A stretch of DNA of 64,000 nucleotides from Trueperaceae bacterium. GTDB lineage: Bacteria; Deinococcota; Deinococci; Deinococcales; Trueperaceae. A program made the position numbers and the translations under genes. The stretch covers positions 648,180 through 712,179 of the forward strand of contig JAXHNB010000006.1 in the NCBI GenBank assembly GCA_034520945.1, written 5' to 3'. Positions 10,411-28,793 of this stretch are shown one piece after another (position 1 is the first letter of the stretch; each line of letters starts with the position of its first letter). The notes below the pieces were generated by a model. The model searched no databases, had not been told where the DNA came from, and worked only from the letters and a program-made list of their open reading frames with translations.

Positions 10411-10494
10411 GGGGAGGTGCGCCCCACGCCTGGGCCGGGCGCCAGGTCGCGGGGCGCGTAGGACCGGGGCGCTCAGCCTCGCCGACGCGCTCCT

Positions 10495-10508
10495 TTGACC
10501 TGCGTCAT
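10495..10508. promoter_or_regulatory. CRP/FNR-geometry box A (TTGAC-CTGC-GTCAT)
   Basis: A 5-4-5 dyad with 35 nt to the ATG at 10544. Same motif and spacing as the boxes at 20681 and 20817. Confidence 0.55.
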
Positions 10509-10543
10509 GGGTCGGCGCGGCGTGAGCCGGCAGACTGGGTGTC

Positions 10544-10762
10544 ATGACAGCGAACGCGTCCATCCCTTTCGAGTCCATCACCTCCGAAACCACGCTCAAC
10601 GACGTCATCGCCGCCCAGCCTGAAGCGACCACCGTATTCGCCGCGCGCGACCTCGACACCTGCTGCGGTGGGGGCGCGACCCTCGCCGAGGCCTGCGCCG
10701 ACGCCGGCGTGTCGCTCGACGACTTGATGGCCGACCTCGGGCGCCTGTGGGACCGAACGTGA
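10544..10762 (+). CDS. ScdA_N (DUF542)-like small protein
   Basis: 72 aa; TLNDVIAAQPEATTVFAARDLDTCCGGGATLAEACADAGVSLDDLMADL matches the N-terminal domain of ScdA/YtfE/DnrN. Confidence 0.65.
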   Translation: MTANASIPFESITSETTLNDVIAAQPEATTVFAARDLDTCCGGGATLAEACADAGVSLDDLMADLGRLWDRT

Positions 10763-11100
10763 GCGTGCCGCCCGAAGGCGAGGCCGACACCGCGCTCGCC
10801 CACCACGACCTGCCCGCGCTCGCCCGGTACGGGGCGACGCGCGACGCCCAGATCCTCGTGGACGCGCCGGAGGTACGCATGGTGCTGTTCAGCCTCCAGG
10901 ACGGGCAACGCGTCCGCGGGCGGGGCGAACCGCGGGTGCACATGATCTGCATCGAGGGCGAGGGCGAGCTTTGGGCGGGCGAACGCAGCGTGCCTGCGCG
11001 CGCGGGAAGCATGATCGGCTGCGGGGCCGGCGAGGCGCACGGCGCGCAGGCGGGCGACGGACGCTTCCTGGTGCTGGGCGTAATCACGCCGCGGCCCTGA
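10747..11100 (+). CDS. small cupin-domain protein
   Basis: 117 aa; VHMICIEGEGELWAGERSVPARAGSMIGCGAGEAHGAQA. Overlaps the upstream gene by 16 nt. Confidence 0.65.
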   Translation: MGPNVSVPPEGEADTALAHHDLPALARYGATRDAQILVDAPEVRMVLFSLQDGQRVRGRGEPRVHMICIEGEGELWAGERSVPARAGSMIGCGAGEAHGAQAGDGRFLVLGVITPRP

Positions 11101-11110
11101 ACGCGCGATC

Positions 11111-11524
11111 ATGATCGCAGCCACCCGTATTGCGCTCAGCGCGGGCGTCCTCTACTTCCTGATCTCCAACACGCTGGGCCTCCTGCTCGGCACCGGCACC
11201 GTGTCCCCCTCGTGGCGGCCGGCGCACGCCCACCTGAACCTGCTGGGGTTCGTGGCGATGATGATCTACGGCGTGGCGTACCACGCGCTGCCACGATTTC
11301 GGGGCGTGCCGATGCGCCGCCCGCACCTGGCGCTGGGCCAGGTGGTGCTGGCCAACGTCGGCCTGATCGGCATGGCCCTCACCTGGGGGCTGCGATGGGA
11401 CGCCGCAGCCTTTGCGCTGTGGGGCGGCCTGTCCTGGTTGGCCAGCGTGCTGTTCGTGGCCCTCATGATGGAGGTGCTGTGGCGTCCACGGCCGGCCATC
11501 CCGTCGGGCGGGCGCCTACGCTGA
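11111..11524 (+). CDS. 4-TM membrane protein with an H-x-H...G...H..P motif (heme-copper-oxidase/NnrS-like fragment)
   Basis: 137 aa; PAHAHLNLLGFVAMMIYGVAYHALPRF. The same spacing pattern recurs in the 448-aa protein at 21112. Confidence 0.55.
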   Translation: MIAATRIALSAGVLYFLISNTLGLLLGTGTVSPSWRPAHAHLNLLGFVAMMIYGVAYHALPRFRGVPMRRPHLALGQVVLANVGLIGMALTWGLRWDAAAFALWGGLSWLASVLFVALMMEVLWRPRPAIPSGGRLR

Positions 11525-11651
11525 GTCGCTGGCCGTAGGTTTCGCGCCTCTTTCTCGGGCGCTGGGCCGGCCCAATGGGCCGGCCCAGCGCGTCGCGTCG
11601 TATCGCGGGTGGCGCAGTGTCCACGGGCCTACTCCGTTCGTGGGTCACGGG

Positions 11652-12398
11652 TCAGTCGTGGGCGTCCTCCAGCGAGGCCCCGTGCCATGCGTGCGGCCAG
11701 ATCGCGCCGGTGGTGGCGTGGACGCTGAGCATGCCGTCGACGCGCCCCTCGCGGCCGTAGTCGAAGGTGACGTAGCCTGGGAACGCCTGTCCGGCGAGGA
11801 TCTCGGCGCCCGGCAGGAACCCCTTGAGGAAATCCTTCGCCAGGTCGCGCGCCGCCGCTTCGTCGTAGCGTTCCGCGGGCGCTGCGGCGTAGCCCATCCC
11901 GCCGGCGCGGTTCCACATCATGTTGGGGCCCGGTTCGGGCGTCACCTGGCCGGTGTAGCGGTCGACGAGCAATTCCGCCAGCCCTCGGTCCTCGCCGTCC
12001 ACGACCTGCGCGTAGGTGTGGTTCGCGAAGGGCATGACGTCGGCGATGCGCGCGTCGGGGCCGAACGAGGCCGCGGCCTCCTCCAGGCGTTCGCGCAGCA
12101 GCGTGTCGTCGAGCGGCGTCGCGCCGGCGGGCAACGTCTGCATCATGCCCATGCCGCCGCCCATCATGCCGCCGCCCATCATGCCGCGCGTGCCAGGGGC
12201 CATGCGTCCGGGGACCCGCTGGCCGTACCCCATACCGCCGTACCCCATGGCACCGTTGCCGGGACCCATGTGGTGGGCACGTTGGTAGCCGTCGTTCGTC
12301 CATGGTTGCGTGTTCGGGCCGTCCATCATGCCCTGGGCGACCACCAGTCCGAGGGCGAGGAGGCCGAGGGTGATCAGTAGCGTTCGTGTGCGGTTCAT
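11652..12398 (-). CDS. secreted Met/Gly-rich protein with PepSY-like repeats
   Basis: Signal peptide MNRTRTLLITLGLLALGLVVAQG, then MGYGGMGYG...GMMGGGMMGGGMGMM. ATGA overlap with the upstream SHOCT gene. Confidence 0.6.
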   Translation of the reverse strand: MNRTRTLLITLGLLALGLVVAQGMMDGPNTQPWTNDGYQRAHHMGPGNGAMGYGGMGYGQRVPGRMAPGTRGMMGGGMMGGGMGMMQTLPAGATPLDDTLLRERLEEAAASFGPDARIADVMPFANHTYAQVVDGEDRGLAELLVDRYTGQVTPEPGPNMMWNRAGGMGYAAAPAERYDEAAARDLAKDFLKGFLPGAEILAGQAFPGYVTFDYGREGRVDGMLSVHATTGAIWPHAWHGASLEDAHD

Positions 12399-12655
12399 GT
12401 CGTGTCCTTTCGCGTCAGTTCGCTCTTGCGACGTTCGAACTCGTCGCTGTCGATCTCGCCGCGGGCGTAGCGCTCGCGGAGGATATCGAGGGCGCGGTCG
12501 TCCCTCTCGCTGCTTTCGTTGCGGCCTCCGGTCTGCGACCGGCCTTGATCCAGCGCCCGTACCAGCCAGACGATGGCCAGGATCAGGACGATCCAGAACA
12601 GGATCATGCCGATGCCGCCGAAGCCGCCCATGCCCCAGCCGCCGTAGCCCATCAT
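12395..12655 (-). CDS. SHOCT-domain membrane protein
   Basis: One TM segment (ILFWIVLILAIVWLV) and the C-terminal LRERYARGEIDSDEFERRK SHOCT signature. Confidence 0.8.
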   Translation of the reverse strand: MMGYGGWGMGGFGGIGMILFWIVLILAIVWLVRALDQGRSQTGGRNESSERDDRALDILRERYARGEIDSDEFERRKSELTRKDTT

Positions 12656-13195
12656 CGGACTCCTCCCTCCAACTCAGCGGTCTGCCAGGCGCCGGGCTCG
12701 ACGCCGCGAACGTCGCGGTCGATGCGCGCGCTTGGGATGGTGTTCGCACAGGTCTGCATGTGGACCTCCGTTCCGTACCCCATCGGGGTATCTGCGTCGA
12801 GGATGCCCTGCCCGTGTAAAGCTGACGTCAAGGGCCGGACAAGCTCGGATGAAGTCGTCTACGCGTGCACCTGCCGGTTTCGTGCATGTTGGCGCCATGC
12901 GCCTGCCCCAGGCCCTGCTTCCGCGCGCCGCCGCTGCCGTTCACGGCGCCCGAGTCGCTGCACGACTGACGCAGGTTCCTGGCGGCGCCGGAGGACGCAG
13001 TGAGCGCCGTGCACACCACTTTGGGCAGCACGGGCGCGCCGATGGTGGTGCGGTTCACCTGGCGCGATTTGCAGCGTCTGACCAACCTGTGGGCGCTTGG
13101 GTTGCGGCTGGTGGGCACGGATTCCATGCGCGCACCGATCGCGCTCCCCTGCAGGCGCGGCCTGCCGGCCTGCCGCGAGGTGGGCGTCCGCCTCG

Positions 13196-13462
13196 CTACT
13201 CGTTCGGGGGGGTCAGGTCCCGTACCTGGCGCGCATACTCCTCGTCGTCGATCTCGCCGCGCGCGTAGCGTCGACGCAGGCGCTCGTGCGCCCGCGCGTT
13301 CGCGTCTTCCTCCCGTGCCCGTTCCTTCTTGAGGCCGATGGCACGCATCAGCCGGTCGATTCCCATGACGGAGAGGATGACGAGCAGGGCGACGCCGAGC
13401 GGGGCGAATCCGCCCATGCCCCAGCCGTGGTAGGGAAGCATGGCAGCCCCGAGGATCATCAC
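13196..13462 (-). CDS. SHOCT-domain membrane protein (paralogue)
   Basis: Same build as the gene at 12395: N-terminal GWGMGGF, one TM, C-terminal LRRRYARGEIDDEEYARQ. Confidence 0.8.
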   Translation of the reverse strand: MMILGAAMLPYHGWGMGGFAPLGVALLVILSVMGIDRLMRAIGLKKERAREEDANARAHERLRRRYARGEIDDEEYARQVRDLTPPNE

Positions 13463-13472
13463 GCCCGCCCCC

Positions 13473-13868
13473 TCACGTGGCGCCCCCCATCAGCAGGTTC
13501 CGCCGGGTGTCGCGGGTGGACGGGTCGAACTGCAGGCCCATGGAGAGAGTGTACGCGCCCTGGCCCGGCCATCGGTCGGCCGGATCGGCGTGCAAGGGCT
13601 CGAGATCCACCGAGGCCACGCCGATGCGCGGCGTCATGGGTAGGGACTCGAGGTTCGGCAAGCGTTCGCAGTGTGCAAGCAGATCGTCGAGGGGCATGGC
13701 CCGTTCGATGCCGTTTCGCTTGTGAAGCAATGCGACCTCCCACACGCGAAGGGCCGACACCGCGATGCCGCTCTCAATGTGCGCCTGAATGGCCCGTCGG
13801 GCGGTTGCGCTCGGTTCGCGCGGTTCGCTCAGCCACCACAGCCAGGCGTGCGTGTCGAGGGCGATCAC
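13473..13868 (-). CDS. PIN-domain protein (VapC-like) with no adjacent antitoxin
   Basis: VIALDTHAWLWWLSEP...ISALRVWEVALL...HADPADR. GTG at 13868, 35 nt after the upstream gene stop. Confidence 0.6.
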   Translation of the reverse strand: MIALDTHAWLWWLSEPREPSATARRAIQAHIESGIAVSALRVWEVALLHKRNGIERAMPLDDLLAHCERLPNLESLPMTPRIGVASVDLEPLHADPADRWPGQGAYTLSMGLQFDPSTRDTRRNLLMGGAT

Positions 13869-13903
13869 GCGCTCGGTCGGCCGCCTGGCCCCTCCTGGAC
13901 GCC

Positions 13904-14983
13904 TCAGGCGCGCGGCGCAAGGCGCTTCGGGTGCTGGAAGGCGAAGTCCTCGCGGAGGATCATGTCGAGCGTCTGTTCGATCGTGGGGCGGTCCCCCCAG
14001 TAGGTGCCGGCGTTGCAGAAGCGCACCACGCCCTCGGGGTCGATGATGACGGTCGTCGGGCGGTTCACGAACTCGCCGTGGACGGCGTACTGCAGCGGTT
14101 CGGTCCCGTACCGGGCACCGACGGCGCCGGCCCGGTCCATGAGGTGAGGCCACCAGATCCGTTCGGTGTAGGCCTCCTTGAACCATTGCCGTGAGCCCCA
14201 TAGCGTGGGTTGGATCTCGCGGCCCACCATGAGGCGAGCGCGCCAGGTGTCGTGCGCCTCGAGCGTCGCGAGCTGTACGCCTCGCTCCACGAACGCGTCG
14301 CGCATCTCCATCAACTCGGCGAATTCGCGGTGGCAGACGGGGCACCAGTCGGCGAACACCCACACCAGGACGACCCAAGCGCCGCGGGCGTTCCGCAGGC
14401 GCCACCTTCGGCCTTCGGTGTCGTCCAGCTCGAAGTCGATGGCGTGATGACCGGGTGCAGGGCGACCGAAGTGGTCTTCGTTCAGGGCCAGGAAGGCGTC
14501 GCGTTGGGCGTCCGAGCTGTGGCCGGCGGCCTCGATCTGCGCCGCTGCCAGCTCGAGCTGATGGCGGACGTCGGCGTGCGGTTCGGACGCGAGGCGTTCT
14601 TGCAGGAGCTCCAGGGACGGCGTCGCACCCATCTCGCCCAACGCGATGGCCCCGTACGCCCGGGCGACCGGTTCGGGGTCTTGGGCAACCATGCGTTCGA
14701 GGTCGTCCCGTGCCGCGTGCGCCCGGGCGATGCCGAGGGCGTACGCGGCGAGGCTGCGGACGTTCAGGTCCTCGTCGGCCAGTCCACTCGCGACGGCGTC
14801 GGGGTCGGCGAGCGCCCCCCGGATGAGGTCGCGGACGGCCAGGGAGCGCACGCGGCCGTCTTGATCCTCGAGATCGGCCACGCCCGGCTCGCCCAGCTCG
14901 CGGTCCACGGTGAAGGTGCGCCGTTCGGCCTCGAGGGGATGGAAGTCGTGCCGGCGGATCCGTTCGAAGGTGGCGGAAACCAT
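13904..14983 (-). CDS. HEAT-repeat / thioredoxin-fold (redoxin, AhpC-TSA-like) fusion protein
   Basis: The N-terminal half has HEAT-like repeats (VRSLAAYALGIA, ARAYGAIALGEMG). The C-terminal half has VLVWVFADWCPVCHREF. Only the last 1080 nt of the 679-aa track ORF are credible. Confidence 0.7.
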   Translation of the reverse strand: MVSATFERIRRHDFHPLEAERRTFTVDRELGEPGVADLEDQDGRVRSLAVRDLIRGALADPDAVASGLADEDLNVRSLAAYALGIARAHAARDDLERMVAQDPEPVARAYGAIALGEMGATPSLELLQERLASEPHADVRHQLELAAAQIEAAGHSSDAQRDAFLALNEDHFGRPAPGHHAIDFELDDTEGRRWRLRNARGAWVVLVWVFADWCPVCHREFAELMEMRDAFVERGVQLATLEAHDTWRARLMVGREIQPTLWGSRQWFKEAYTERIWWPHLMDRAGAVGARYGTEPLQYAVHGEFVNRPTTVIIDPEGVVRFCNAGTYWGDRPTIEQTLDMILREDFAFQHPKRLAPRA

Positions 14984-15163
14984 GCGTGAGTGTAGGCGAC
15001 GCCCCGTTCTCGACCGCGTCGCGTGTTTGTCGGGCCCAGAAGGGGCTGGCGCGAGGGGGTCTGATCGACCGGCACCGCGTCGTTCGTCGTTACGAGCGTT
15101 GCAGTGCGCCCGTGGCGCTACGGGCTGCAGGCGAATCCGATGAATCGTGCAAAGCTGTAGCGC

Positions 15164-15637
15164 ATGAGACCCATCCAGCGCCTGATCGGACGCGTACGTC
15201 ACCCCATGGCCGAGCGGCACGCGCGCGGCAAGGGCATCGAGGTGCTTGCCGCCGAACTCGAGGCGTCCGGCCGCGCGCTGGACGCCCGCATCGCCGGAAA
15301 GCTGGACACGTCCGGGAACCGCGAGGCGCTGGCTCACTGGATCGGGATCGAGCGCTGGGGGCAGCGCCGCCTCCACGTGACGCTGGGTGAGCCCTTCCTC
15401 CAGGACGAACATCATTCCTACCGGCCCGACATGGGGGAAGGGTTGACGGCGCTGCAGCGCGCCTTGGCCGAGACGCGCGCCGAGACGGTGGCGTTGGCAC
15501 GCAGGCTGCAGAAGGAAGGTGTCGATCCCACCACGACCGTGCCGCACAACGATCTGGGCCGGCTGAGCGTGGCCGGCTGGCTGGCGTACCTGCGGCAACA
15601 TCCGGAGCAGGAGGCGAGGGGGCGGCTGCGGGGGTGA
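15164..15637 (+). CDS. DinB-superfamily protein
   Basis: 157 aa with a four-helix-bundle-like pattern and His-containing motifs (ALAHWIGIERW, DEHHSY). Recognised by eye. Confidence 0.6.
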   Translation: MRPIQRLIGRVRHPMAERHARGKGIEVLAAELEASGRALDARIAGKLDTSGNREALAHWIGIERWGQRRLHVTLGEPFLQDEHHSYRPDMGEGLTALQRALAETRAETVALARRLQKEGVDPTTTVPHNDLGRLSVAGWLAYLRQHPEQEARGRLRG

Positions 15638-15844
15638 CCTCGGCGGGCCCGGACGCTCACGACCGACCTTGGGGCGTGTCCTCTTCCGCCAGCAGGCCGT
15701 CGATCGCCTGGAGCGCCCACAGGGTCCGAGCGAGCGTGGTTGACCTCGGCGGGCCCGGACGCTCACGACCGACCTTGGGGCGTGTCCTCTTCCGCCAGCA
15801 GGCCGTCGATCGCCTGGAGCGCGCGCAGGGTCCGAGCGAGCGTG
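15635..15844. repeat. tandem duplication, two copies of a 106-bp period (104 nt aligned, 2 mismatches)
   Basis: tgacctcggcgggcccggacgctcacgacc...cagggtccgagcgagcgtg occurs at 15635 and 15741. The track shows the same peptide MTSAGPDAHDRPWGVSSSASRPSIAWSA twice. Confidence 0.9.
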
Positions 15845-16248
15845 CCGCTGCCCAAGTGGTCGCCTAGCTCGCGATCCAGTACGGCCAGGAACGCGCGAAC
15901 GTCCGCCATCATCCGTTCGCCCCGGTCGGTGAACACGATGCACTTCTGCCTGCCGGTGCCCTCACGTTGTTCCACGTATCCGGCGCGGGACAACTGCGCG
16001 ACGGTCTTGCCCACCATCTGCCGGGACACACCGAGCGTGCGGGCGACGTCGGAGGCGACGTTCACGCCGCAGTCGAGCGTCCCCAAGAACTCGAGAACCG
16101 CTGGGGAGAGGTCCTCGTATCCTTTCTCCTGCAGGTGCTGGGCCGCGCGTGACACGATCCGTTCGTGGACGTCGGCGGTCGCGAACACGAGCGCGAGCGA
16201 GCGGCTCTCGACCATCGCCACCCCGCGCTGTGTAAACCAAGTTGACAT
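15763..16248 (-). CDS. MarR-family transcriptional regulator
   Basis: 161 aa; wHTH ASDVARTLGVSRQMVGKTVAQLSRAGYVEQREGTGRQK. Confidence 0.85.
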   Translation of the reverse strand: MSTWFTQRGVAMVESRSLALVFATADVHERIVSRAAQHLQEKGYEDLSPAVLEFLGTLDCGVNVASDVARTLGVSRQMVGKTVAQLSRAGYVEQREGTGRQKCIVFTDRGERMMADVRAFLAVLDRELGDHLGSGTLARTLRALQAIDGLLAEEDTPQGRS

Positions 16249-16288
16249 AGGGCGCTCCGTCCGCTAGCCTGTGTCTACCAAGTTTACA
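16231..16288. promoter_or_regulatory. two imperfect palindromic boxes (candidate MarR operators)
   Basis: TGTAAAC-caa-GTTGACA (16231-16247) and TGTCTAC-caa-GTTTACA (16272-16288) sit 41 bp apart in the marR / 16332 divergent region. Confidence 0.4.
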
Positions 16289-16331
16289 TGCGGCCGCGGT
16301 TCCGACCCGGCGGCGTGGAAGGGGCCCGAAC

Positions 16332-17246
16332 ATGCACACCGCACGCCCATTACGCCACGCGCTGCTTGCCAACGCCACGTTCTCGCTGGTGATGGCGTCG
16401 CTGCTCGTCATTGCCCCCTCGCGTGTCGGGGACGCTCTGGCGCTCGACGCGCCCGGCCTCTTGCGGTTTTTGGGCTACGGGCTCGTCGTCTTCGGCGCGG
16501 ACCTCGTGCACCAGGCCACCCGCGAGCGTGTCGCGACGTGGCGGGCGCTGTATGCCAGCGCCCTGGACGTCCTGTGGGTGGTCGGAACGGCGGGATTGCT
16601 GCTCGCCCGTCCCGAGTTGCTGTCCCTCAGGGGCGCCGTCGTGGCGCTGGCGGTCGCGGGGATGGTCGCCGTGTTCGCGGCTTGGCAGCTCTGGGCGATC
16701 GACCGAGCACACGCCGGTTCGAGCTCGGGTTTGCGCCGCCACTGCGTGGCCGTGCACGCAGACGTCTCGGCCGATGCCATGTGGCGCGTCTTGGGCGACT
16801 TCGGCCGCATTCAGCGCTTCACGGCGAGTCTGGCCAGCTCCGAGATCCTGGGCGACGAGGATGCGGACGTCGGCGCTGGTGCGCCGATGCGTGGACGTGC
16901 GCGGCAATGCCTGGGAGGAGGCCTGCGTGGCCTACGAGCCCGGCAGCAGCCTCACGATGCGCTTCTTGGCAGAGGCGCCGGACGTTCCCTTCCCTGCGCG
17001 GTCCATGACGCGCGGTTGGAATCTCGTTCCGGACGGCTCACGAACGCGCGTCGAGGTGTGGTGGGAACGGCGCCCCGCCCGCGCTACGCCGCGCCCGTGC
17101 TCATGCCCCTCTTCGCCTGGCGGGCCGACCGGGCGATCCCGGAGGTGGTGCGACGCATGACGCAGGCCGCCAGGGGTGCCCGAGGGGTCGAGGCCTCGCG
17201 GCGCGGGGTTCGCCGCTTGGCGCGGCCCCTTCCGCGTGCGTGCTGA
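16332..17246 (+). pseudogene. membrane-anchored SRPBCC (polyketide-cyclase-like) protein, split over two frames
   Basis: N-terminal TM region and the start of SRPBCC are in frame 16332. The core (VRRCVDVRGNAWEEACVAYEPGSSLTMRF...RVEVWWERRP) is in frame 16411. The tail returns to frame 16332. Confidence 0.6.
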
Positions 17247-17268
17247 CCGAGGACACGTGCTCCCTGCG

Positions 17269-17997
17269 CTACGCGGCGCAACCGTCGTCGTCGCAGGCCG
17301 CCCCGTGCTCGCCGAGCGTCTCCAGCGGCGCGCGTTCCTGCCAGGTGCGGCGCAGCGCCTGCAGGATGGTGTCGGCCGGTTGCGCGCCGGGAAGGCCGTA
17401 GCGGCTGTCCAGCGCGAAGAACGGCACGCCCGTGATGCCCAGTCGGCGGGCGCGGGTTTCGTCGGCGCGCACGTCGTCGGCGTGCGCGCCGGAGCTCAGG
17501 GCCTCGCGCACCTCGTCTGCAGGGACGCCGACGTCGTCCAGCAGCTCCACCAGCGTGTCCGTGTCGGAGATGGCGCGGGCCTCGGTGAAGTATGCCCGCA
17601 GCAGGCGTTCCTTGGCGTCGTCCTGCAGGCCGTGCTCCTGGGCGAGGTGCAGCAGGCGGTGCGCGTCGAAGGTGTTGCCGCGCTGGGCCTGGTCCAGCCG
17701 GTAGTCCAGCCCCTCGGCGGCCGCCAGTTCGGTCACCTGCTGGTTCATGGCGGCGGCGCGCTCGAGGCTGACGCCGTACTTCTCCGCCAGGTGCTGCTCG
17801 AGGCCCACGCGGGCGTGGGTCGGCGCGTCCGGGTCGAGCTCGAACGAGCGCCAGACCACGTCGACGGCGTCCGCATGCTCGAAGTCCCGGAGGGCCGCTT
17901 CGAAGCGCCGCTTGCCGATGTAGCACCAGGGGCAGACGACGTCGGACCAGATCTCGACGGTGAGGTGCTCGGTAAGGGTGGGGGCGCCGTCGTTCAT
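17269..17997 (-). CDS. frnE: DsbA-family dithiol-disulfide isomerase, FrnE type
   Basis: IWSDVVCPWCYIGKRRFE active site and the C-terminal ACDDDGCAA (CxxxxC) tail described for Deinococcus FrnE. Confidence 0.8.
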   Translation of the reverse strand: MNDGAPTLTEHLTVEIWSDVVCPWCYIGKRRFEAALRDFEHADAVDVVWRSFELDPDAPTHARVGLEQHLAEKYGVSLERAAAMNQQVTELAAAEGLDYRLDQAQRGNTFDAHRLLHLAQEHGLQDDAKERLLRAYFTEARAISDTDTLVELLDDVGVPADEVREALSSGAHADDVRADETRARRLGITGVPFFALDSRYGLPGAQPADTILQALRRTWQERAPLETLGEHGAACDDDGCAA

Positions 17998-18087
17998 GGG
18001 GAGAGTGTACGGGTGGGCGGGCGAGGGTGGCGTCGGCTCGGGTGCTTGTAGATTCACTTCACGCGTACCACGAGGGTACGGCTCTCC

Positions 18088-18321
18088 TTAGGTTTTGCCT
18101 ATGCGGACGCGCCAGAGTTCGGGTCCGGATTCGAGGTACTCCCATTCGAGCAGGCCGGGGCGTTCGGCCTGGAACTGGTAGTACAGCGGCTTGGGATCGT
18201 GGTCGTTGACCAGCTCGTACGCTTCGCCGGGCGAGAGGTCGTCGAAGCGTTCGAACAGCAGGGGGTGGCGGTCGCGCGGTGGGATTTCCCGCACGTCGAT
18301 GCGTTCCTTCGGATCGGCCAT
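18088..18321 (-). CDS. DUF2249-domain protein
   Basis: 77 aa; IDVREIPPRDRHPLLFERFDDLSPGEAYELVNDHDPKPLYYQF. Confidence 0.7.
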   Translation of the reverse strand: MADPKERIDVREIPPRDRHPLLFERFDDLSPGEAYELVNDHDPKPLYYQFQAERPGLLEWEYLESGPELWRVRIGKT

Positions 18322-18446
18322 GATGAACCTCCGGGGTCGTGGGGTGCATGTAGGTGTCGTTGCTCTTGAGGGATCGTACGCCGAGCACGGTGAGCGTGCC
18401 GGCGCCAGCGATGAGCGCTTTGTGCTCGCCTTGGGCGACGTGCACC

Positions 18447-19723
18447 TGGACCTCCCCCGGGGCCGTGGACCGGGCTTGGGCGCCTTCGGTCATGCGGGCG
18501 CCGTCCTGCGAGCGTACTGGGTTTCCCACTCCGCTGGGGTGAGCATGCCCAGGGTGGAGTGGCGCCGACGCTGGTTGTAGGTCACCTCCAGCCAGAAGAA
18601 GATCGCGGTTCTCAGTTCCTCCTCGACCGCCACGCGTGGCGGTCGAGGAGTTCCGTCTGCAACGTCGCGAAGAAGCTTTCCATCACCGCGTTGTCGTGGG
18701 GGCTTCCCCGACCGCTCATGCTGCCCACCAGGCCGAACTGGGATAGCGTCTCGCCGAACCGGATCGAGGTGTACGCCGACCCGCGGTCGGAGTGGTGGAT
18801 GAGACCGCCGTTCACGTCGTGCCGCCCTGCGGCCATGCTGACGGCGTCGACGACCAGCTCGGTGGAGGCACTGTCGCCCATCGACCAGCCTTTGATCCGT
18901 TTCGATGCCGCATCGAGGACGGCCGCCAGGTACAACCAGCCGTCGTCCGTAAGGTGCTGCGTCACGTCCGCGTACCAAACGCGGTTGGGCTCCTCGACCT
19001 CGAAGGCGCGCTGCACCAGGTCCGGCGCGACGCGCTCCGCCAGCGAAGCCTCCTGCGCCTTCCTGCGGCCCTGCTTGCGGCGGTGCACGCCCTGCAGGCC
19101 CGCGGTCCGCATCAGGCGCTCCACGCGCTTCCTGGAGACGTACCAGCCGTGCTCCAGGCGCAGCTCGGCGTGCACCCTGGGCGAGCCGTACGTGCCGTCC
19201 GACGCCTCGTGAATCTCACGGATCACGCCCAACAGCTCATCGTCCTCCTGGGCCCTCTGGGACGGCGGGCGGTCCCGCCAGGCGTAGTACCCCGCCCGAG
19301 CAATGTTCAAGACGCGGCACATGGTCCTGACGCTGTGGTTCGCCTTCTCCGCATCGACGAACCGATACACGCTTACCGCGTGCGATCGGTCGTCCGTCGC
19401 GAAGAAGGCTGCCGCCTTTCGTAAGATCTCCCGTTCCTCACGCAACAAGCGATTCTCGCGCTTCAAACGGCGAATCTCCGCGCTTTCCTCGACCGCCTGC
19501 GGGTTCTCCTGGACTTCGGCGTCCCGCACCCACTTCCGGATCGAGTACGCGCTCACGTCGAGTTCCTCCGCCAGTTTCCGGAAGCCCTTGCCACTCTCCC
19601 GGTAGAGGCGTACGACCTCCTGTTTGTACTCGCTGCTGTACCGCTTGGCCATTCGGACCAGTCCCTTCCTTCCCGAAACCTACCAGGAAGCAGTCACATG
19701 GTCCACGAGGCAGGGGGAACTCC
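18447..19723 (-). mobile_element. IS3-family insertion sequence (about 1277 bp)
   Basis: Imperfect 25-bp terminal inverted repeats (tggacctcccccggggccgtggacc at 18447; reverse complement of 19699-19723 is tggagttccccctgcctcgtggacc; 19/25 match). Flanked by the 3-bp direct repeat ACC (18444-18446 and 19724-19726). Confidence 0.75.
18490..19652 (-). CDS. IS3-family transposase (OrfA-OrfB in one frame; C-terminal frame break near 18620)
   Basis: HTH MAKRYSSEYKQEVVRLY..., LRKAAAFFA junction, DDE core (WYADVT, HHSDRGSAYTS, PHDNAVMESFF). The last roughly 40 aa (EELRTAIFFWLEVTYNQRRRHSTLG) are in another frame. Confidence 0.8.
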
Positions 19724-19730
19724 AACCACG

Positions 19731-19976
19731 TCACCCTCGGGGGCGCGTGAGGATCTCCTCGAGTTCTGCGTACAGCGCGTGCGCCTGCGTTTCGCTCAGG
19801 CCTCGGATGCGGATGGCTTGCTCCAGCGTGACGGTCGCCGCCAGCGCGCTGCGCATGACGGGGTTCTGCAGCGGCGTGAATCCGTGGCGCACCAGGCAGG
19901 GCAGCACCTCGGGGGAGCGTTCCAGCAGGGTCGAGACGCGCGTATGCGCCAGCGAAGCGGGAGGGTCGGCCGTCAT
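19731..19976 (-). CDS. DUF1858-like small protein
   Basis: 81 aa from MTADPP; VSTLLERSPEVLPCLVRHGFTPLQNPVMRSALAATVTLEQAIRIRGL. Confidence 0.5.
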   Translation of the reverse strand: MTADPPASLAHTRVSTLLERSPEVLPCLVRHGFTPLQNPVMRSALAATVTLEQAIRIRGLSETQAHALYAELEEILTRPRG

Positions 19977-20022
19977 GCGCGTCACCGTGGCCGAGCCCAA
20001 CGGCGCCTCGCTATGACCGAGG

Positions 20023-20646
20023 TCAAACGCCGCGCAGGGAGGCGGTGTCCATATCGGCCGGTTCACCGCCGTTCTGGCTGCGCTGCGTTCCCACGACCTC
20101 GCTCACGAGGCGGTCGCACCACGCATCCAGCAGCTCGTCCACCCGCTCCTCCTCGCCGTCGTAGTTCAGCAGCAGGCCCACGAACATGTCCCCCCGCAAC
20201 GCGCGGGAGTCCTCGAAGTCGTAGCCGGCGTGCGGCCACGGCGCCACCAGCGTCGCCCCCGCCGCTTCGAAGCGTTCCGCGACGATGCCGAGGGCGTCGC
20301 CGAAGGTGTCGGGATAGAAGACCGGATCGCCGGCACCGAAGAGGGCGACGCGCACGCCCCGGAAGTCCTGACCCGTAAGCTCGTCCAGGCGGTCGTCCCA
20401 GTCGGCCTGCAACAGCCCGATGTCCCAGGTGGGGACACCGAGCGCAAGCACGTCGTACGACGTCAACGTGGCCGGTTCCACGACCCCCACGTCGAGGCAG
20501 GGCACTTTGGCGTCCAGCCGTCGCTCCAACCGCTCGGTGAGTCGCTTGGCGGCGTCCTCGGTGTTGCCCGAGGTGCTGCCGTACACCACGGCCATGCTGG
20601 GCGTCTCAGGAACGGTCGTGCGGGTCGGATCGGAGGAGGACGCCAT
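20023..20646 (-). CDS. long-chain flavodoxin
   Basis: MAVVYGSTSGNTEDAAKRL FMN-phosphate loop, WDIGLLQADWD, ALFGAGD. Confidence 0.85.
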   Translation of the reverse strand: MASSSDPTRTTVPETPSMAVVYGSTSGNTEDAAKRLTERLERRLDAKVPCLDVGVVEPATLTSYDVLALGVPTWDIGLLQADWDDRLDELTGQDFRGVRVALFGAGDPVFYPDTFGDALGIVAERFEAAGATLVAPWPHAGYDFEDSRALRGDMFVGLLLNYDGEEERVDELLDAWCDRLVSEVVGTQRSQNGGEPADMDTASLRGV

Positions 20647-20680
20647 GCGTGGCAGGATAGCGGCCCTCCCGCCAGGGCGC

Positions 20681-20696
20681 CTTGACGCAGGTCAAG
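20681..20696. promoter_or_regulatory. CRP/FNR-geometry box B (cTTGAC-GCAG-GTCAAg, perfect 16-bp palindrome)
   Basis: 35 nt separate the 14-mer from the flavodoxin ATG (20646, minus strand). TATCCT ends 7 nt before that ATG. Confidence 0.55.
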
Positions 20697-20816
20697 TTCG
20701 CCCGGTCGCGCGCCCGGGGGGCGGTCGCTGGACGAGCGCAGGTACGACGCGGCGGTTTCGACGCAGCCGCACGCGGGGCGGGCCTTCCGTGGAGGAGCGC
20801 TCCGGGTTGGGCAGGG

Positions 20817-20832
20817 CATGACGTGCGTCATG
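20817..20832. promoter_or_regulatory. CRP/FNR-geometry box C (cATGAC-GTGC-GTCATg, perfect 16-bp palindrome)
   Basis: 35 nt separate the 14-mer from the ATG at 20867. TAGGTT ends 6 nt before that ATG. Confidence 0.55.
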
Positions 20833-20866
20833 GCCCCGGCACGCGCTTGCAGGCTAGGTTCACCGC

Positions 20867-21115
20867 ATGAGTGACACCGTCGACGAGGTGCTCGACAATC
20901 GCGGCCTCGAACCCCCCATGCCGATGACGCGCACGCTGGAGGCGTACGAGGGCCTTGCGCCGGGCGGCCGCCTGCGGATCCACAACGACCGCGTGCCCAT
21001 CTACCTCCTGCCACAACTAGAGGAGCGCGGCGCCCGCTTCGAGATCGACGAACAGGTTGATGGCAGCGCCTTCGTCACCATCACCAAGCCCGAGGGCGAC
21101 GCGGCGGCGCGGTGA
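20867..21115 (+). CDS. DUF2249-domain protein
   Basis: 82 aa; LDNRGLEPPMPMTRTLEAYEGLAPGGRLRIHNDRVPIYLLPQLEERG. Confidence 0.65.
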   Translation: MSDTVDEVLDNRGLEPPMPMTRTLEAYEGLAPGGRLRIHNDRVPIYLLPQLEERGARFEIDEQVDGSAFVTITKPEGDAAAR

Positions 21116-22458
21116 CGTCCGCGCTTGCTGGGGGCAATGCCGTCCCTTTCGTGGTTCCGCTGCGCTTCTTGCTGAGTGGCGCCGTGGCCCTGGCTGCGTT
21201 CTGGACGGCGCTCGTGTTGCGTCCCAGCGCTGCGGTGGGGTACGCCGCCGCGCCGGATACGTTGGCGTTGGTGCATGTGCTCACGTTGGGGGTCGGCACG
21301 CTGGTGCTGGTGGGTGCCATGCATCAGTTGGTGCCGGTGCTGCTGGTCACGCACCTCTATGCTCCCGGGTGGGGGTTGGCGACGTTCCTGGGGTTGGGTG
21401 TGGGTTCGTTGGCGGTGGTGCTGGGTTTCGCCCTCGGGTCGCGCCCGGCGTGGTTGGCGGTGGGTGGCACCGTGGCGTGGCTGGCCGTCACGCTGTTCGT
21501 CCTGAACGTCGGCCTCACCGCCGCCCGCGTAGCGCGCCTCGACGCGCCCGCCGTGACGCTGCTGGTGGCGACGGCGTACCTGTGGTTGACGTTCACGCTG
21601 GGGACGCTGCTGGCGCTGGCGCGCGTCTGGCCCGCCCTGCAGGCGGCGCTCGGGTACGCCACGCCCGTCCACCTCTCCTTCGGCCTGCTTGGCGCGTTCG
21701 GGCTGGCCATCGCCGGTGCGGGCCATAAGCTCCTCTCGATGTTCACTCTGGCGCACGGTGTGCGCCTGGGCGCGCTCTGGGGCGTCCTCGGCTTCACGGT
21801 GGCCGGGACGGTGCTGCTGGTGGTGGTCACCTGGGGTCCCGCCGTGGGGTTCGGCGGCGGTCCGGGGGCGCTTACCTACGCCGCGTCCTGGGGGGCGCGC
21901 CTCGCCTTCCTGTTCGGGGGCGCGTGCTACGCCCTGGACGTCCGTCGGATCCTGCGCGCCCGCATACGCCGCAACCCGGACGTGGGCGTGCGGGGGTTCC
22001 TGGTCGGCATCGCAGGGTTCGTGCCGGCGGCGGCGGCGATGCTGGCGGGGCGCATCGACGTCGCGGTGACACTGGTGTTGGTGGGCGTCGTTCCGCTGGC
22101 CATCGCCGGCATGCTCGTCAAGATCTCGACGTTCCTGACCTGGCAGCACCGCTACGCGCGATGGGTGGGTCGCAGCCAGACGGGGCGGGGCACGCCGATG
22201 CTGTCCGACATGATCCGGCCGCGCCTGGGGTGGGTCACGATCATGGGCTTGGCGGCGGGGAGCCTGCTGGTGGCACTGGCGCGATTGCTGGACAGCGAAG
22301 CCGTCGCGGGCATTGCTGCCGTGCTGGGCGCCGTGGGCGCCTGGGCGCTGCTGGCGCACGTGGCGTGGATCGTCTTCGCCGAGCATGCGCCGAGCGGAGC
22401 GCAGGGCACGCCCCCCGCTCCGCCGGTGGAGAGGAGACAGGATGTCCGACCTTCGTGA
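21112..22458 (+). CDS. about 12-TM membrane protein with repeated His motifs (NnrS / heme-copper-oxidase-like)
   Basis: 448 aa; LVHVLTLGVGTLVLVGAMHQLVPVL and VHLSFGLLGAFGLAIAGAGHKLLSMF. ATGA-type overlap with DUF2249. Confidence 0.55.
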   Translation: MTSALAGGNAVPFVVPLRFLLSGAVALAAFWTALVLRPSAAVGYAAAPDTLALVHVLTLGVGTLVLVGAMHQLVPVLLVTHLYAPGWGLATFLGLGVGSLAVVLGFALGSRPAWLAVGGTVAWLAVTLFVLNVGLTAARVARLDAPAVTLLVATAYLWLTFTLGTLLALARVWPALQAALGYATPVHLSFGLLGAFGLAIAGAGHKLLSMFTLAHGVRLGALWGVLGFTVAGTVLLVVVTWGPAVGFGGGPGALTYAASWGARLAFLFGGACYALDVRRILRARIRRNPDVGVRGFLVGIAGFVPAAAAMLAGRIDVAVTLVLVGVVPLAIAGMLVKISTFLTWQHRYARWVGRSQTGRGTPMLSDMIRPRLGWVTIMGLAAGSLLVALARLLDSEAVAGIAAVLGAVGAWALLAHVAWIVFAEHAPSGAQGTPPAPPVERRQDVRPS

Positions 22459-22798
22459 CGAGATTCGGGGTGACGTCGCCGTCACCGAGATGAACCCCAG
22501 CGTTGATCCGCAGGAGGTGGTGCGCGGCATGGCGAGCGTCATCGATCCCGAGCTGGGATTGGATGTGGTGTCGCTCGGCCTGGTGTACGAGGTGCACGTG
22601 GTGGGGGGTGATGTGACCGTCATCATGACGCTCACCACGCCGGGATGCCCGCTGCACGGCATCATCAGCGCCGACGCCAGCGAGAAGGTCGGCGCGCTGC
22701 CGGGCGTGGACAGTGTCGATGTGCAGCTGGTTTGGGATCCGGCCTGGACGCCGGACATGATCTCAGAGGAGGGCAGGAGCAAGCTGTTCTGGCTGTGA
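22442..22798 (+). CDS. DUF59 / SufT-like Fe-S assembly protein
   Basis: VVRGMASVIDPELGLDVVSLGLVYEV...TLTTPGCPLHG. Overlaps the upstream gene by 17 nt. Confidence 0.8.
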   Translation: MSDLRDEIRGDVAVTEMNPSVDPQEVVRGMASVIDPELGLDVVSLGLVYEVHVVGGDVTVIMTLTTPGCPLHGIISADASEKVGALPGVDSVDVQLVWDPAWTPDMISEEGRSKLFWL

Positions 22799-22839
22799 GC
22801 CGGCCCTTGCTACCTCGGTTTGGGCGCCCCCCCCCGGGG

Positions 22840-23393
22840 TCAGGGAGCGCTGCATGTCGTCGATGCGTTCGCTGATGCGGATGCCGCGCCGGCACGATCT
22901 CGGGCTGATGGTGGTGCCGGGCCTCGTGTCGTGCCCTCGGTCACACCTGGCAACCCCGGGTACGATCCAATCCGAACTTCGGCGTATTCGATGGCACGAA
23001 GGTCAGCGGCGTGGCGAACGGCCGCGTCGAGGGTGACGATACGTGCGTTTAAGCCTCCCGCAAAGGCGAGGTGCAGTGCGTCGAGGCGCGTAGGCTCGTG
23101 CGCCGCGCAAGCAGCCACGCCGTGGCGCGCTCGTAGTGGACCGCGGTGAGGGGTCGGATCTGGAAGCGGCTGGCTTGGAGATCCTGCTCGAATGCCGCTT
23201 CGATACGGTTAGCTTCCACTTCGCTGATCTGGCGCATGCGGGTCCAACGTGCCAGCGCGGAAGTGAACTCGACGCGCGTCAGTTGACGGATCAGCACAGC
23301 CTCTTCTTGGCGTCGCAGCAAATCCTCTACGGCTTCGCTGTGCCGTTCGAGCCGGTAGTAGGGCAGGAGCGCGCTGGTGTCGAAGTACAGCAC
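22840..23393 (-). pseudogene. vapC: PIN-domain toxin VapC, frameshifted near 23100
   Basis: MLYFDTSALLPYY... is in frame 23393. The conserved LDALHLAFAGGLNARIVTLD continues in frame 23118. Confidence 0.6.
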
Positions 23394-23870: not shown

Positions 23871-24197
23871 TTGGACATCTTCGATTTCCGCGAGCACCTG
23901 ATCGGCGATTACGCCGATTACGTGCGGTCGTTCATCCACATTCGCGACGCGCGCATCCGAGACCAGGTCGAGGGCGCTTTGAAGGACGGACGCCTGTGGC
24001 CGCAGCCGCTGCTGCAGCTCAACCCGTCGTTCGAGCCGGGTGGGTCGCTGGATGCCTTGGTGCGCGAGGGCGTCCTGCACTCGCGGACGCCGGAGGTGTT
24101 CCGCGTGGGCAAGTCGGTGGTGGATCCGCGGGGCCGACCGCTCCCGGCGCACCGGCAGCTTCGCGCAACAGACACGGAGGCTGAGCAACTTGTTTGA
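23871..24197 (+). pseudogene. N-terminal remnant (about 100 aa) of a large DEAD/DEAH-box helicase
   Basis: LDIFDFREHLIGDYADYVRSFIHIRDARI...GRLWPQPLLQLNPSFEPGGSLDALV is the leader region of >1000-aa defence-associated helicases. Reading ends before the first helicase motif. Confidence 0.45.
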
Positions 24198-24204
24198 CAA
24201 GTTG
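24186..24204. promoter_or_regulatory. perfect 8-3-8 palindrome CAACTTGT-ttg-ACAAGTTG (candidate FadR/GntR operator)
   Basis: Fits the GntR-type T.GT-N-AC.A pattern, 35 nt upstream of the FadR-type gene start. Confidence 0.5.
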
Positions 24205-24238
24205 TAAGGTCGTTTCATCGAAGGCAGGAGGCAATGGC

Positions 24239-25033
24239 ATGGTCGAGATCGGCGTAGAGCACGCGATGCTGACCAAAGGCCGCAAGCCGGGTCCGTCGTC
24301 TGGTAGCAAGTCGCAGTGCATCGCGCAGGCGCTAGCGTCCGCCATCGTCGCGGGGAATCTGTCCGATGGCGCGTTTCTTCCTCCTGAGAACGAGCTCGCG
24401 GCGCGGTTCGAAGTGAGCAGGCCGATCGTGAGGGAGGCGCTTCACAAGGTCGCTGGCGCAGGCTTGGTGGAGTCCCGGCACGGCATCGGCACGTACGTGA
24501 AGCCCGAGTCGTCGTGGGGTCTATTCGACTCGCTGGTGATGGAAGCCTACGTCGCGACTGGGAACCTGCCGCGCGTACTGAACGAGATCATCGAGCTCAG
24601 GCGTATGGTCGAAGTCGAAGCGGCCGGGAACGCGGCTGCAAGGATAGGCCAAGTGGGGCTCGCGCGGCTCGGCGACTGGCTCGAGCAAATGGACGACGTC
24701 ATCGCGGATCCCGATCGGACGGCCCGAGCCGACATCGCATTCCATGATGCGATCGTGGCCGTCACCGAGAACCGGTTTCTCGTGGCGATCGCGCGTCAGC
24801 CCAGGCGACTCCTGCTCGAGGCGCGTCATCTCACCTCCACGGCCGGTGGGCTGAGCGGCCGAAGGCGGGCGTTGGACGAGCATAGGCGCGTGTATGACGC
24901 AATCCGTGAGGGGAACGGCGAGGAGGCCCGGGAGGCCATGAGCGTTCACGTGAGCAACTCGGAGGCTGATCTCCGGCGTGCGATTCTCCGTGAAGGCGGC
25001 GACCACGCTTCGGGCCGAGGGGACGATCGCTAG
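24239..25033 (+). CDS. GntR/FadR-family regulator (FCD domain)
   Basis: LPPENELAARFEVSRPIVREALHKVAGAGLVESRHGIGTYV plus a helical FCD-like C-terminus. AGGAGG lies 10 nt before the ATG at 24239. Confidence 0.8.
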   Translation: MVEIGVEHAMLTKGRKPGPSSGSKSQCIAQALASAIVAGNLSDGAFLPPENELAARFEVSRPIVREALHKVAGAGLVESRHGIGTYVKPESSWGLFDSLVMEAYVATGNLPRVLNEIIELRRMVEVEAAGNAAARIGQVGLARLGDWLEQMDDVIADPDRTARADIAFHDAIVAVTENRFLVAIARQPRRLLLEARHLTSTAGGLSGRRRALDEHRRVYDAIREGNGEEAREAMSVHVSNSEADLRRAILREGGDHASGRGDDR

Positions 25034-26211: not shown

Positions 26212-26227
26212 TGGGTGGAACGGGCAT

Positions 26228-27208
26228 ATGACGGTCGTGATCACGAAGAAGATGCCGGAGGCTCTCGTTGCCCAGGAGCTTCCCGGTGTCGACGTCGTCC
26301 AGGGTCCAGATGGGCGTGCGTGGTCGCGAGAGCAAGTGATCCCGTACCTGGCCAGCGCTGAAGCCCTGATCACCTGGGGCTTCTTGAAGGTCGACGACGA
26401 CGCTCCTGTCGCACGCCCCGAACTTGAAGGTCGTTGCCAACGCTGCAGCGGGCGTGAACAACCTGGACGTCTGACGCAGCTCGACCCGCCACGGGGTGTG
26501 GGCCACGAACGTGCCCGACGCGTTCGCGGTGCCGACCGCCGAGGTCGCGATCGGTCTTGATGGTCTCCCTCATGAGACGCATCAGCGAGGGAGAACGGTA
26601 CCTGCGTGCCGGCGAATGGAAGGAGATCGGAGCCCGGTCGCTTCGACGGCGTCTCGCTCGCGGGGAAGCGGCTTGGCCTGGTGGGCTTCGGTCGTATTGG
26701 CACGAGAGGTGGCACGCCGGGCGACGCGCGTTCGGCATGGACGTGATGCTACACGAGGCGCGGAGGCGTCGAGACGGCGAAGCTGCTCGAAGATGGGAAC
26801 GCGACGTATCGCTCTCTCGACGAGCTCCTCGAGGCAGCGGACGTCGTCTCGCTCCATACGCCACTCACGGAGGAGACGCGCCACCTGATCGATGTCTGCC
26901 ATGCTCGCGAAGATGAAGCCGACCGCGTTCTTGGTGAACACGGCTCGTGGCAACGTGGTCGATCAGGATGCCCTGATCGACGCGCTCGCCAGCGGTCGCC
27001 TTGCCGGTGCTGGCCTGGATGTGTTTGCCGACGAGCCCGCGTTCCCGAGCGTCTACTCGCACTCGACGACGTCGTCGTGACGCCACATTTGGGCGGTGCA
27101 TCCGTCGAGTCCCGGTGGGAGGCGTACCGGCAGGCGCTCGAAAACGTCCGGCTCGTGTTCGAGGGGCGAGAACCACGCTCGCCCGTCAACCGGGGAATGT
27201 TCCTCTAG
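26228..27208 (+). pseudogene. D-isomer-specific 2-hydroxyacid dehydrogenase, many frame breaks
   Basis: MTVVITKKMPEAL... (frame 26108), the GLVGFGRIG-type segment in another frame, [37 protein letters not shown] (frame 26892), and the VVVTPHLGG tail in a third frame. Confidence 0.7.
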
Positions 27209-27284
27209 AAGGGGGGTGATAGGTAGCGAGGGTAGGTCCACAGAAGCGACACCGCAATGACCTCGACGAAAGGTGGTCGATAAC

Positions 27285-28781: not shown

Positions 28782-28793
28782 AGGGCTGGTGAC

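Follow-up and report, generated by a model that had tools for sequence, protein, structure and literature searches.

In a 64,000-nt stretch of the genome of a Trueperaceae bacterium (assembly GCA_034520945.1, contig JAXHNB010000006.1, positions 648,180 to 712,179; in the following "the window"), four copies of a palindromic box, wTGAC-N4-GTCAw, were found, each of them 35 or 36 nt upstream of a start codon. These boxes are likely to be sites of a class II activator of the DnrT type and to drive leaderless mRNAs of one regulon for nitric oxide (NO) and iron-sulfur (Fe-S) stress. As the box is already known from denitrification promoters of Thermus thermophilus, the finding extends the known Thermus DnrT system and does not represent a new one. 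What goes beyond the known system are single boxes positioned for two divergent, putatively leaderless promoters, a comparative argument for the identity of the binding protein, and a divergent protein of predicted heme-copper oxidase (HCO) fold at the regulon core.

According to the proposed mechanism, a dimeric activator of the CRP/FNR family, belonging to the Thermus DnrT type (DNR subgroup, without the FNR cysteine cluster) and encoded outside the window, would bind all four boxes, each spanning approximately −48 to −35 of a promoter that is devoid of a −35 hexamer. Once bound, the dimer would direct RNA polymerase to a −10 element of the form xAnnnT 22–23 nt downstream, and transcription would start at or beside the start codon, yielding leaderless mRNAs. 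The four promoters would constitute one regulon comprising nsrS-nsrT with the gene of a 137-aa protein, a flavodoxin gene, a DUF1858 gene, and the genes of a DUF2249 protein, an HCO-like membrane protein (435/448 aa) and a SufT-like protein.

Sequence, position and statistics of the boxes

A search for the pattern wTGAC-N4-GTCAw across the window returned the following four sites, scored in bits with the relatives-only matrix described below.

Box 1, 10495–10508: TTGACCTGCGTCAT, 35 nt 5' of the nsrS-like ATG at 10544 (+), 21.4 bits
Box 2, 20682–20695: TTGACGCAGGTCAA, 35 nt 5' of the flavodoxin ATG at 20646 (−), 20.5 bits
Box 3, 20818–20831: ATGACGTGCGTCAT, 35 nt 5' of the DUF2249 ATG at 20867 (+), 20.2 bits
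Box 4, 20013–20026: ATGACCGAGGTCAA, 36 nt 5' of the DUF1858 ATG at 19976 (−), overlapping the flavodoxin stop codon, 19.3 bits

The initial annotation of the window had reported boxes 1 to 3 together with a gap of exactly 35 nt between each 14-mer and its ATG, and both the sites and the spacing were recovered precisely. Its count of three has to be raised to four, box 4 having been overlooked, and the two sites that it described as perfect 16-bp palindromes actually consist of perfect 6-bp arms flanking a non-symmetric 4-bp spacer. All four perfect boxes are 14-bp 5-4-5 inverted repeats of the TTGAY-N4-RTCAA class.

Four occurrences in 64 kb compare with 0.09 expected from dinucleotide-preserving shuffles, an approximately 40-fold excess, and not one out of 100 shuffled windows reached this number. 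Variants of TGAC-N4-GTCA with one mismatch occur 28 times versus 23.8 expected, i.e., at background frequency, so the perfect boxes alone stand out. Positions located 34–36 nt upstream of an ATG or GTG that opens an open reading frame (ORF) supported by third-codon-position GC content account for 3.8% of the window, compared with four out of four boxes. A 20-bp weight matrix trained exclusively on sites of relatives, with none from the window, retrieved exactly the four boxes at 19.3–21.4 bits, the next-best site in the window scoring 9.9; shuffled windows gave a mean of 0.31 matches at ≥12 bits.

In two cases, the TGA of TTGAC within the box provides the stop codon of an upstream frame, namely an ORF ending at 10498 (stop codon 10496–10498) and the flavodoxin gene (20023–20025). 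The stop codon of Thermus nsrR lies within the box in the same manner (comparison locus L028, 5762–5764).

Conservation of box and geometry in relatives

A search of a genome collection with the 435/448-aa membrane protein returned 24 comparison loci; loci are referred to by L numbers. In every Trueperaceae, Deinococcaceae, and Thermus locus, the box is present upstream of orthologous genes, 33–38 nt from the start codon. Related loci with a conserved box are L001–L010, L020, L023, L149, and L150. Altogether, approximately 30 orthologous promoters of these three groups keep this distance, and the extended consensus derived from the relatives reads CCwTGACCnnGGTCAwGG. Conservation in orthologous loci, which had been named as a test when the boxes were first noticed, is thereby found in all three groups.

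In five relatives (L001, L002, L003, L006, and L020), one box is located between divergent DUF1858 and DUF2249 genes, whose starts lie 34–36 nt on either side. Such single shared boxes were located at L001 9618, L002 9695, L003 6948, L006 7655, L020 8751, and L149 12604, within an intergenic region of approximately 84 bp. At the last of these, the database-called divergent genes, encoding a DUF2249 protein and a 146-aa protein, start exactly 35 nt to either side of the box. Because one box is flanked by two starts at 34–36 nt, a single activator dimer could act on two leaderless promoters. In the window, the flavodoxin gene has been inserted into this shared-box arrangement and has divided it into separate boxes; no flavodoxin homologue was found in the related loci.

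Among the comparison loci, strong boxes are confined to those from Deinococcota or resembling them, and they are absent from most Myxococcota and Planctomycetota loci having the DUF2249-membrane protein-SufT operon. In a Myxococcota locus (L021), this operon carries no box and is adjoined by an Rrf2-family gene (11486–12076, −); in this other phylum the operon may be under NsrR-type control. Two loci from Myxococcota metagenome-assembled genomes (MAGs) contain a related box, CTGAC-N4-GTCAA (L011 12398–12411; L012 2763–2776), placed 33–34 nt upstream of the gene of a 636-aa protein without Pfam match, just 3' of the same operon, suggesting that an FNR-type site of this kind may also exist beyond Deinococcota. 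A further locus (L004, JACKFC010000047.1), binned as Deltaproteobacteria/Myxococcota, shows the Deinococcota-type box with a 34-nt geometry and encodes a membrane protein 45% identical to that of the window; it may be a mis-binned Trueperaceae contig or the result of lateral transfer.

A metagenome scan for CCWTGACCNNGGTCAWGG gave at least 120 matches. Most of the 120 listed are chance hits inside coding sequence, from taxa of 29–73% GC. Among the listed matches, a few plausible FNR-type promoters belong to a radical-SAM gene and a locus (L074) that are both Thermus-like, and to a NarX-like kinase gene and a CRP/FNR gene of other taxa, the box lying 34–37 nt upstream of the latter two. Judged by the matches listed, the scan did not delimit the regulon.

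Promoter geometry and predicted leaderless transcripts

Downstream of each box in the window, a predicted −10-like hexamer could be assigned.

10531–10536 (+): CAGACT, 22 nt after box 1, 7 nt before ATG 10544
20654–20659 (−): TATCCT, 22 nt after box 2, 7 nt before ATG 20646
20855–20860 (+): TAGGTT, 23 nt after box 3, 6 nt before ATG 20867
19984–19989 (−): CACGGT, 23 nt after box 4, 7 nt before ATG 19976

The first three agree with the initial annotation, which had placed their ends 6–7 nt before the ATG. At four out of four window promoters, the xAnnnT hexamer thus begins 22–23 nt after the box and ends 6–7 nt before the start codon. The approximately 30 orthologous promoters show the same layout, with a (T/C/G)AnnnT hexamer 22–23 nt after the box that ends 5–7 nt before the start codon. 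A gap of this length is predicted for a 14-mer covering −48 to −35 in a promoter whose transcript starts at the start codon.

Prediction of sigma-70 −35/−10 promoters gave none at the four presumed promoter positions, and the single match within 19600–23000 falls just within the DUF2249 coding sequence. TTGAC was rejected as a −35 hexamer because the −10-like element is 30 nt away and the sigma-70 prediction is negative at these positions. No Shine-Dalgarno sequence was detected at the window promoters. In Deinococcus deserti, 60% of the mRNAs are leaderless (PMC4007540). Based on this precedent, the fixed geometry and the missing Shine-Dalgarno sequence, we infer that these promoters give rise to leaderless mRNAs.

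The box in Thermus promoters

In T. thermophilus, a palindrome, CTTGACCNNGGTCATGG, is conserved in the promoters of nirJ, norC, nrc, nsrR, and nsrS (PMC5748679). The site of DnrT on the nrc promoter (Pnrc) is given in PMC7694296 as CCTTCACCTTACTCCTTGACCCCGGTCAT, containing TTGACCCCGGTCAT and positioned at approximately −43 from the transcription start, where DnrT recruits RNA polymerase. Details of the DnrT footprint (Cava et al. 2007) were taken as summarised in PMC7694296 and PMC5748679, which for Thermus DnrT also report direct binding and transcription dependent on the regulator. We found the exact box at the nrc promoter of strain NAR1 (L027 15064–15077). The window sequence at 10494–10510, tTTGACCTGcGTCATGG, differs from CTTGACCNNGGTCATGG by two mismatches, and a Thermus locus contains an exact match (L028 5761–5774); the palindrome assigned to NsrR(Th) in nsrS-type promoters is thus matched. 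In Thermus HB5018, nsrS follows the box at a distance of 38 nt, and the box overlaps the stop codon of nsrR. The first window operon corresponds to Thermus nsrS, which encodes a 65-aa protein with an ScdA domain, and nsrT, which encodes a 98-aa cupin and whose start overlaps the stop of nsrS. Since the palindrome, the DnrT site on Pnrc and the nsrST counterparts are known, the box, its approximate position and a candidate binding protein have already been published for a related genus.

A DnrT-type regulator in related loci

In seven relatives (L002, L003, L005, L006, L020, L149, and L150), the orthologous operon is adjoined by a CRP/FNR-family gene (cNMP_binding and HTH_Crp_2 domains). With a protein of a Thermus megaplasmid, the encoded proteins share 46% identity; this megaplasmid protein was taken as DnrT because its gene follows a GAF-BTAD gene (dnrS) divergent from narC-narG. 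Common to Thermus DnrT and the Trueperaceae proteins is the recognition helix TVPE(A/L)VSRNL, hence P-E-x-x-S-R, corresponding to Pro180-Glu181-x-x-Ser-Arg185 in CRP numbering. As reported by Rodionov et al., Ser or Pro at the position of CRP-R180 with retained Glu181 correlates with the FNR-like motif wyTTGACnnnnGTCAArw (PMC1274295). The DnrT-like family comprises 837 matches at E ≤ 1e-20, and all those with a named source among the 120 listed are from Trueperaceae. The N-terminal cysteine cluster of the O2-sensing [4Fe-4S] FNR proper is absent: the DnrT-like proteins of the relatives have a single conserved N-terminal cysteine (ARCPLF) and Thermus DnrT has none there, in line with the literature, according to which DnrT is without an FNR-type cysteine cluster (PMC5748679).

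Three candidates for a regulator inside the window were rejected. The ORF at 11652–12303 (−), beside the first operon, has no meaningful family match. A winged helix-turn-helix (HTH) protein (15763–16248, −), considered as NsrR, is MarR-like, has one cysteine and possesses operator repeats of its own: two repeats of approximately 20 nt, TGTGTAAACCAAGTTGACAT and TGTGTCTACCAAGTTTACAT, are present in 16231–16290, between this gene and a divergently oriented 304-aa gene without assigned family, and probably represent the operator of this MarR-like regulator, unrelated to the boxes. A tblastn match to NsrR(Th) at 24392 falls in the HTH region of a GntR/FCD regulator.

Weighing the candidates for the binding protein

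The class II CRP/FNR interpretation already put forward by the initial annotation, with a site approximately 41.5–42.5 bp from the start codon, leaderless mRNAs and a common regulon, gains support from the conservation of the box, its geometry, the linkage to a regulator gene in relatives, the residues of the recognition helix, and the match to the Thermus DnrT site. Several observations weigh against it in the DnrT form proposed here. By profile hidden Markov models and tblastn of all six frames, no CRP/FNR gene was found in the window, as had been noted from the start. Alvarez et al. attributed this palindrome to the Rrf2 protein NsrR(Th) from electrophoretic mobility shift assays (EMSA) run on deletion fragments, and EMSA with DnrT failed in Thermus (PMC5748679). 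The palindrome overlaps only partly with the DnrT footprint on Pnrc, the reported site extending upstream of the palindrome (PMC5748679, PMC7694296). Furthermore, the hexamer CACGGT in front of the DUF1858 gene is weak. The flavodoxin start at ATG 20646, as initially called, fits the leaderless geometry, but the canonical FldA N-terminus aligns to Met18 (ATG 20595), so the protein may begin there and be 17 residues shorter. Finally, in the nic and nrc promoters published for Thermus, the box is 50–73 nt away from the start codon and ribosome-binding sites are present; with leaders in those promoters, the leaderless layout is to be regarded as a trait of the gene set and not of the box.

One alternative retains class II activation and replaces DnrT by another paralogue of the CRP/FNR family responding to a different signal, e.g., an O2-sensing FNR or a heme-containing HcpR/DNR-like protein. 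The HcpR motif of some delta-proteobacteria is wyTTGACnnnnGTCAArw (PMC1274295), and the boxes in front of the NarX-like kinase and CRP/FNR genes among the listed metagenome matches imply that several paralogues with an E--SR helix could read the box. However, the linked regulator is of the DnrT type in seven out of seven related loci, and the 837 DnrT-like relatives, as far as sources are named among the 120 listed, belong to Trueperaceae, which renders a different paralogue rather improbable.

In a second alternative, the box would be the operator of an Rrf2-family Fe-S regulator resembling NsrR(Th), which activates or represses in response to NO. This would agree with the shift of PnorC only when CTTGACCNNGGTCATGG was present and with the palindrome preceding nsrS (PMC5748679), and the window operon at 10544 is indeed orthologous to nsrS-nsrT. 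In contrast, neither the window nor any of the Trueperaceae and Deinococcaceae loci examined contains an NsrR(Th)-like Rrf2 gene. Orthologues were retrieved solely from Thermus/Thermaceae (43 matches, no Trueperaceae among those named, in a word-seeded search of limited sensitivity), yet the box is conserved across Deinococcota. In addition, the usual NsrR motif, gATGyAT-N5-ATrCATc, is unrelated to the box (PMC1274295), and a 5-4-5 TTGAC dyad at approximately −41.5 corresponds to FNR-class architecture. Since these loci contain no NsrR(Th)-type Rrf2 gene, NsrR(Th) appears restricted to Thermaceae, DnrT-like genes accompany the box and the NsrR motif differs, a DnrT-type protein is favored as its reader; an NsrR(Th)-like operator is improbable, although an NsrR-like protein might bind the box, alone or in addition to DnrT.

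Negative regulation by a repressor bound over the −35 region is a very unlikely third alternative. The box does cover this region, and a bound protein could exclude RNA polymerase; moreover, DnrT acts as a repressor at the nqo and fbc promoters of Thermus (PMC5748679), and NsrR(Th) has been proposed to repress PnirS. On the other hand, a recognisable −35 hexamer is missing, which is a typical feature of promoters that depend on an activator, box and −10 are a constant 22–23 nt apart over approximately 30 promoters, as activation requires, and DnrT activates Pnrc from approximately −43 in vitro (PMC7694296). A chance repeat or non-regulatory repeated element, with which the background frequency of one-mismatch variants would agree, is effectively refuted by the over-representation of the perfect boxes, the matrix scores, the location of all four boxes 35–36 nt from starts, and a position kept across three Deinococcota families.

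Genes behind the boxes

Box 1 precedes the operon of an ScdA_N/DUF542 protein, a cupin and a 137-aa membrane protein, box 2 the flavodoxin gene, box 4 the DUF1858 gene, and box 3 the operon of a DUF2249 protein, the 435/448-aa membrane protein and a SufT/DUF59-like protein.

10544–10762 (+): nsrS-like gene, 72 aa, ScdA_N/DUF542, the N-terminal domain of RIC/YtfE proteins (Pfam 1.2e-13; NCBIfam RIC N-terminus)
10759–11100 (+): nsrT-like cupin gene, 65% identical to Thermus NsrT
11111–11524 (+): 137-aa membrane protein, orthologue of the 125-aa gene after Thermus nsrST (E 1.4e-43), weak COX1 match
19731–19976 (−): DUF1858 gene, 81 aa from ATG 19976 (Pfam), orthologues in L001–L003, L006, and L020
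20023–20646 (−): long-chain flavodoxin, FldA-like (Pfam and NCBIfam)
20867–21115 (+): DUF2249 gene, 82 aa (Pfam 6.2e-17)
21112–22458 (+): membrane protein with predicted fold of HCO subunit I, 448 aa from GTG 21112, 435 aa in the NCBI annotation
22442–22798 (+): SufT/DUF59-like Fe-S assembly protein (Pfam FeS_assembly_P 2.1e-21; NCBIfam)

Thermus NsrS is the counterpart of the 72-aa ScdA_N/DUF542 protein (PMC5748679). The nsrT-like ORF opens at GTG 10747, the probable start being GTG 10759, whose overlap with the stop of nsrS (GTGA) has its parallel in Thermus; likewise, the SufT-like ORF opens at 22313, with ATG 22442 as probable start. In relatives, the DUF1858 gene is transcribed divergently from the DUF2249 gene. 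The 137-aa membrane protein is also encoded near the operon in loci other than Thermus nsrST, and its motif H..LLGF..YG..YHALP is reminiscent of the HCO-like protein's N-terminus; a profile comparison with the HCO-like family remained non-significant (E 0.084).

Between the operons, which in the closest relative L001 are approximately 3 kb apart, the window contains unrelated genes. These encode an IS3-family transposase (18612–19652, −), SHOCT-domain proteins (12395–12655, − and 13196–13462, −), a fusion of HEAT repeats with AhpC/TSA (13904–14900, −), a DsbA-like protein (17269–18057, −) and the MarR-like regulator. Megablast of the window from 10 to 23 kb against plasmids gave just one 46-nt SHOCT match, and exact-sequence look-ups of the flavodoxin and of a further protein (P0001) yielded no record. 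The region 24194–34068, of lower GC (61–65%), harbors a sugar-acid catabolic cluster unrelated to the boxes, with genes for a GntR/FCD regulator, a TctA transporter, a 2-keto-3-deoxy-galactonokinase, and a dehydratase of the mandelate racemase/enolase family.

The HCO-like membrane protein and the probable function of the proposed regulon

The 435/448-aa membrane protein (21112–22458) is identical to hypothetical protein U5K81_11595 of a Trueperaceae MAG (Deinococcota) and has no Pfam or NCBIfam match. Its AlphaFold2 (AF2) model is confident (pLDDT 89.6), and the best structural matches are the cbb3 oxidase subunit CcoN and NorB of the cNOR-type nitric oxide reductase (NOR), at a TM score of approximately 0.65. 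Within the family, His 42, 58, 174, 192, and 202 are invariant, all of them in the N-terminal half, and none is found in the region equivalent to helix X. The protein may represent an undescribed branch of the HCO/NOR superfamily. The operon order DUF2249, HCO-like, SufT-like is kept in Deinococcota, Myxococcota, and one Planctomycetota MAG.

SufT-like proteins function in Fe-S assembly. NsrS and NsrT resemble a split RIC/YtfE Fe-S repair protein (PMC5748679). DUF2249 genes are reported to be prominent in a transcriptome study of haloarchaeal denitrification. Taken together, a role of the regulon in NO or anaerobic stress and Fe-S cluster repair appears most likely. Thermus DnrT itself responds neither to O2 nor to nitrate and acts together with DnrS; no DnrS homologue was found in the Trueperaceae and Deinococcaceae loci.

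The DnrT system, studied so far only in the denitrification islands of T. thermophilus, is hereby extended to Trueperaceae and Deinococcaceae, where the conserved targets are small NO and Fe-S stress genes together with a protein of divergent HCO fold and not reductase genes. The Thermus literature is undecided between DnrT and NsrR(Th), and the comparative data favor DnrT: across the phylum, the box and DnrT-like genes go together, and NsrR(Th) appears to be confined to Thermaceae. In the promoter design suggested by these data, class II activation is coupled to a leaderless transcript, and in some cases a single box would serve two divergent genes. Nothing in the current understanding is overturned by this finding. 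As a tentative possibility, all these aspects could be joined, in that the palindrome assigned to NsrR(Th) would primarily be a DnrT box of a Deinococcota-wide DnrT-like regulon, with leaderless class II promoters often sharing one box divergently, and the DUF2249-HCO-fold-SufT-like core would encode an unrecognised NO-handling member of the HCO/NOR superfamily that matches no Pfam family and is devoid of helix-X histidines.

Comparison with known systems

In proteobacterial class II promoters of FNR, DNR, and ANR, the sequence TTGAT-N4-ATCAA is centered at −41.5. The window promoters share with them the 5-4-5 dyad, the E--SR helix of the presumed regulator, a distance of 22 nt from box to −10, and the lack of a −35 element. 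They differ in the half-site, which is TTGAC or ATGAC instead of TTGAT, in a DnrT-like regulator without FNR cysteine cluster and in the predicted leaderless transcripts.

For HcpR of Geobacter, Desulfuromonas, and Desulfotalea, the FNR-like motif wyTTGACnnnnGTCAArw has been described (PMC1274295). It belongs to another clade and phylum, and its targets are hcp and frdX, whereas no hcp gene is present here. Nevertheless, the consensus is identical, Pro or Ser occupies the position of CRP-R180, and the HcpR regulon serves nitrosative stress and includes dnrN/RIC (PMC1274295).

Most closely related are the systems of Thermus. Unlike the Thermus DnrT islands, the window is without a dnrS-dnrT pair and without nar, nir or nor genes, and its boxes are 35–36 nt from apparently leaderless starts instead of 50–73 nt from starts with ribosome-binding sites. 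Compared with nic nsrRST, no nsrR (Rrf2) gene is found upstream of nsrS in the window or in the Trueperaceae relatives. Shared with nsrRST are the palindrome upstream of orthologous nsrS-nsrT, with NsrT being 65% identical, the small membrane protein that follows, and an upstream stop codon within the box in both organisms. Shared with DnrT at Pnrc are the box core TTGACC-NN-GGTCAT and, by analogy, a position near the −43 at which RNA polymerase is recruited in Thermus, and within the same phylum homologous regulators (46% identity, TVPExVSRNL helix) are encoded beside the orthologous operon in the relatives of the window.

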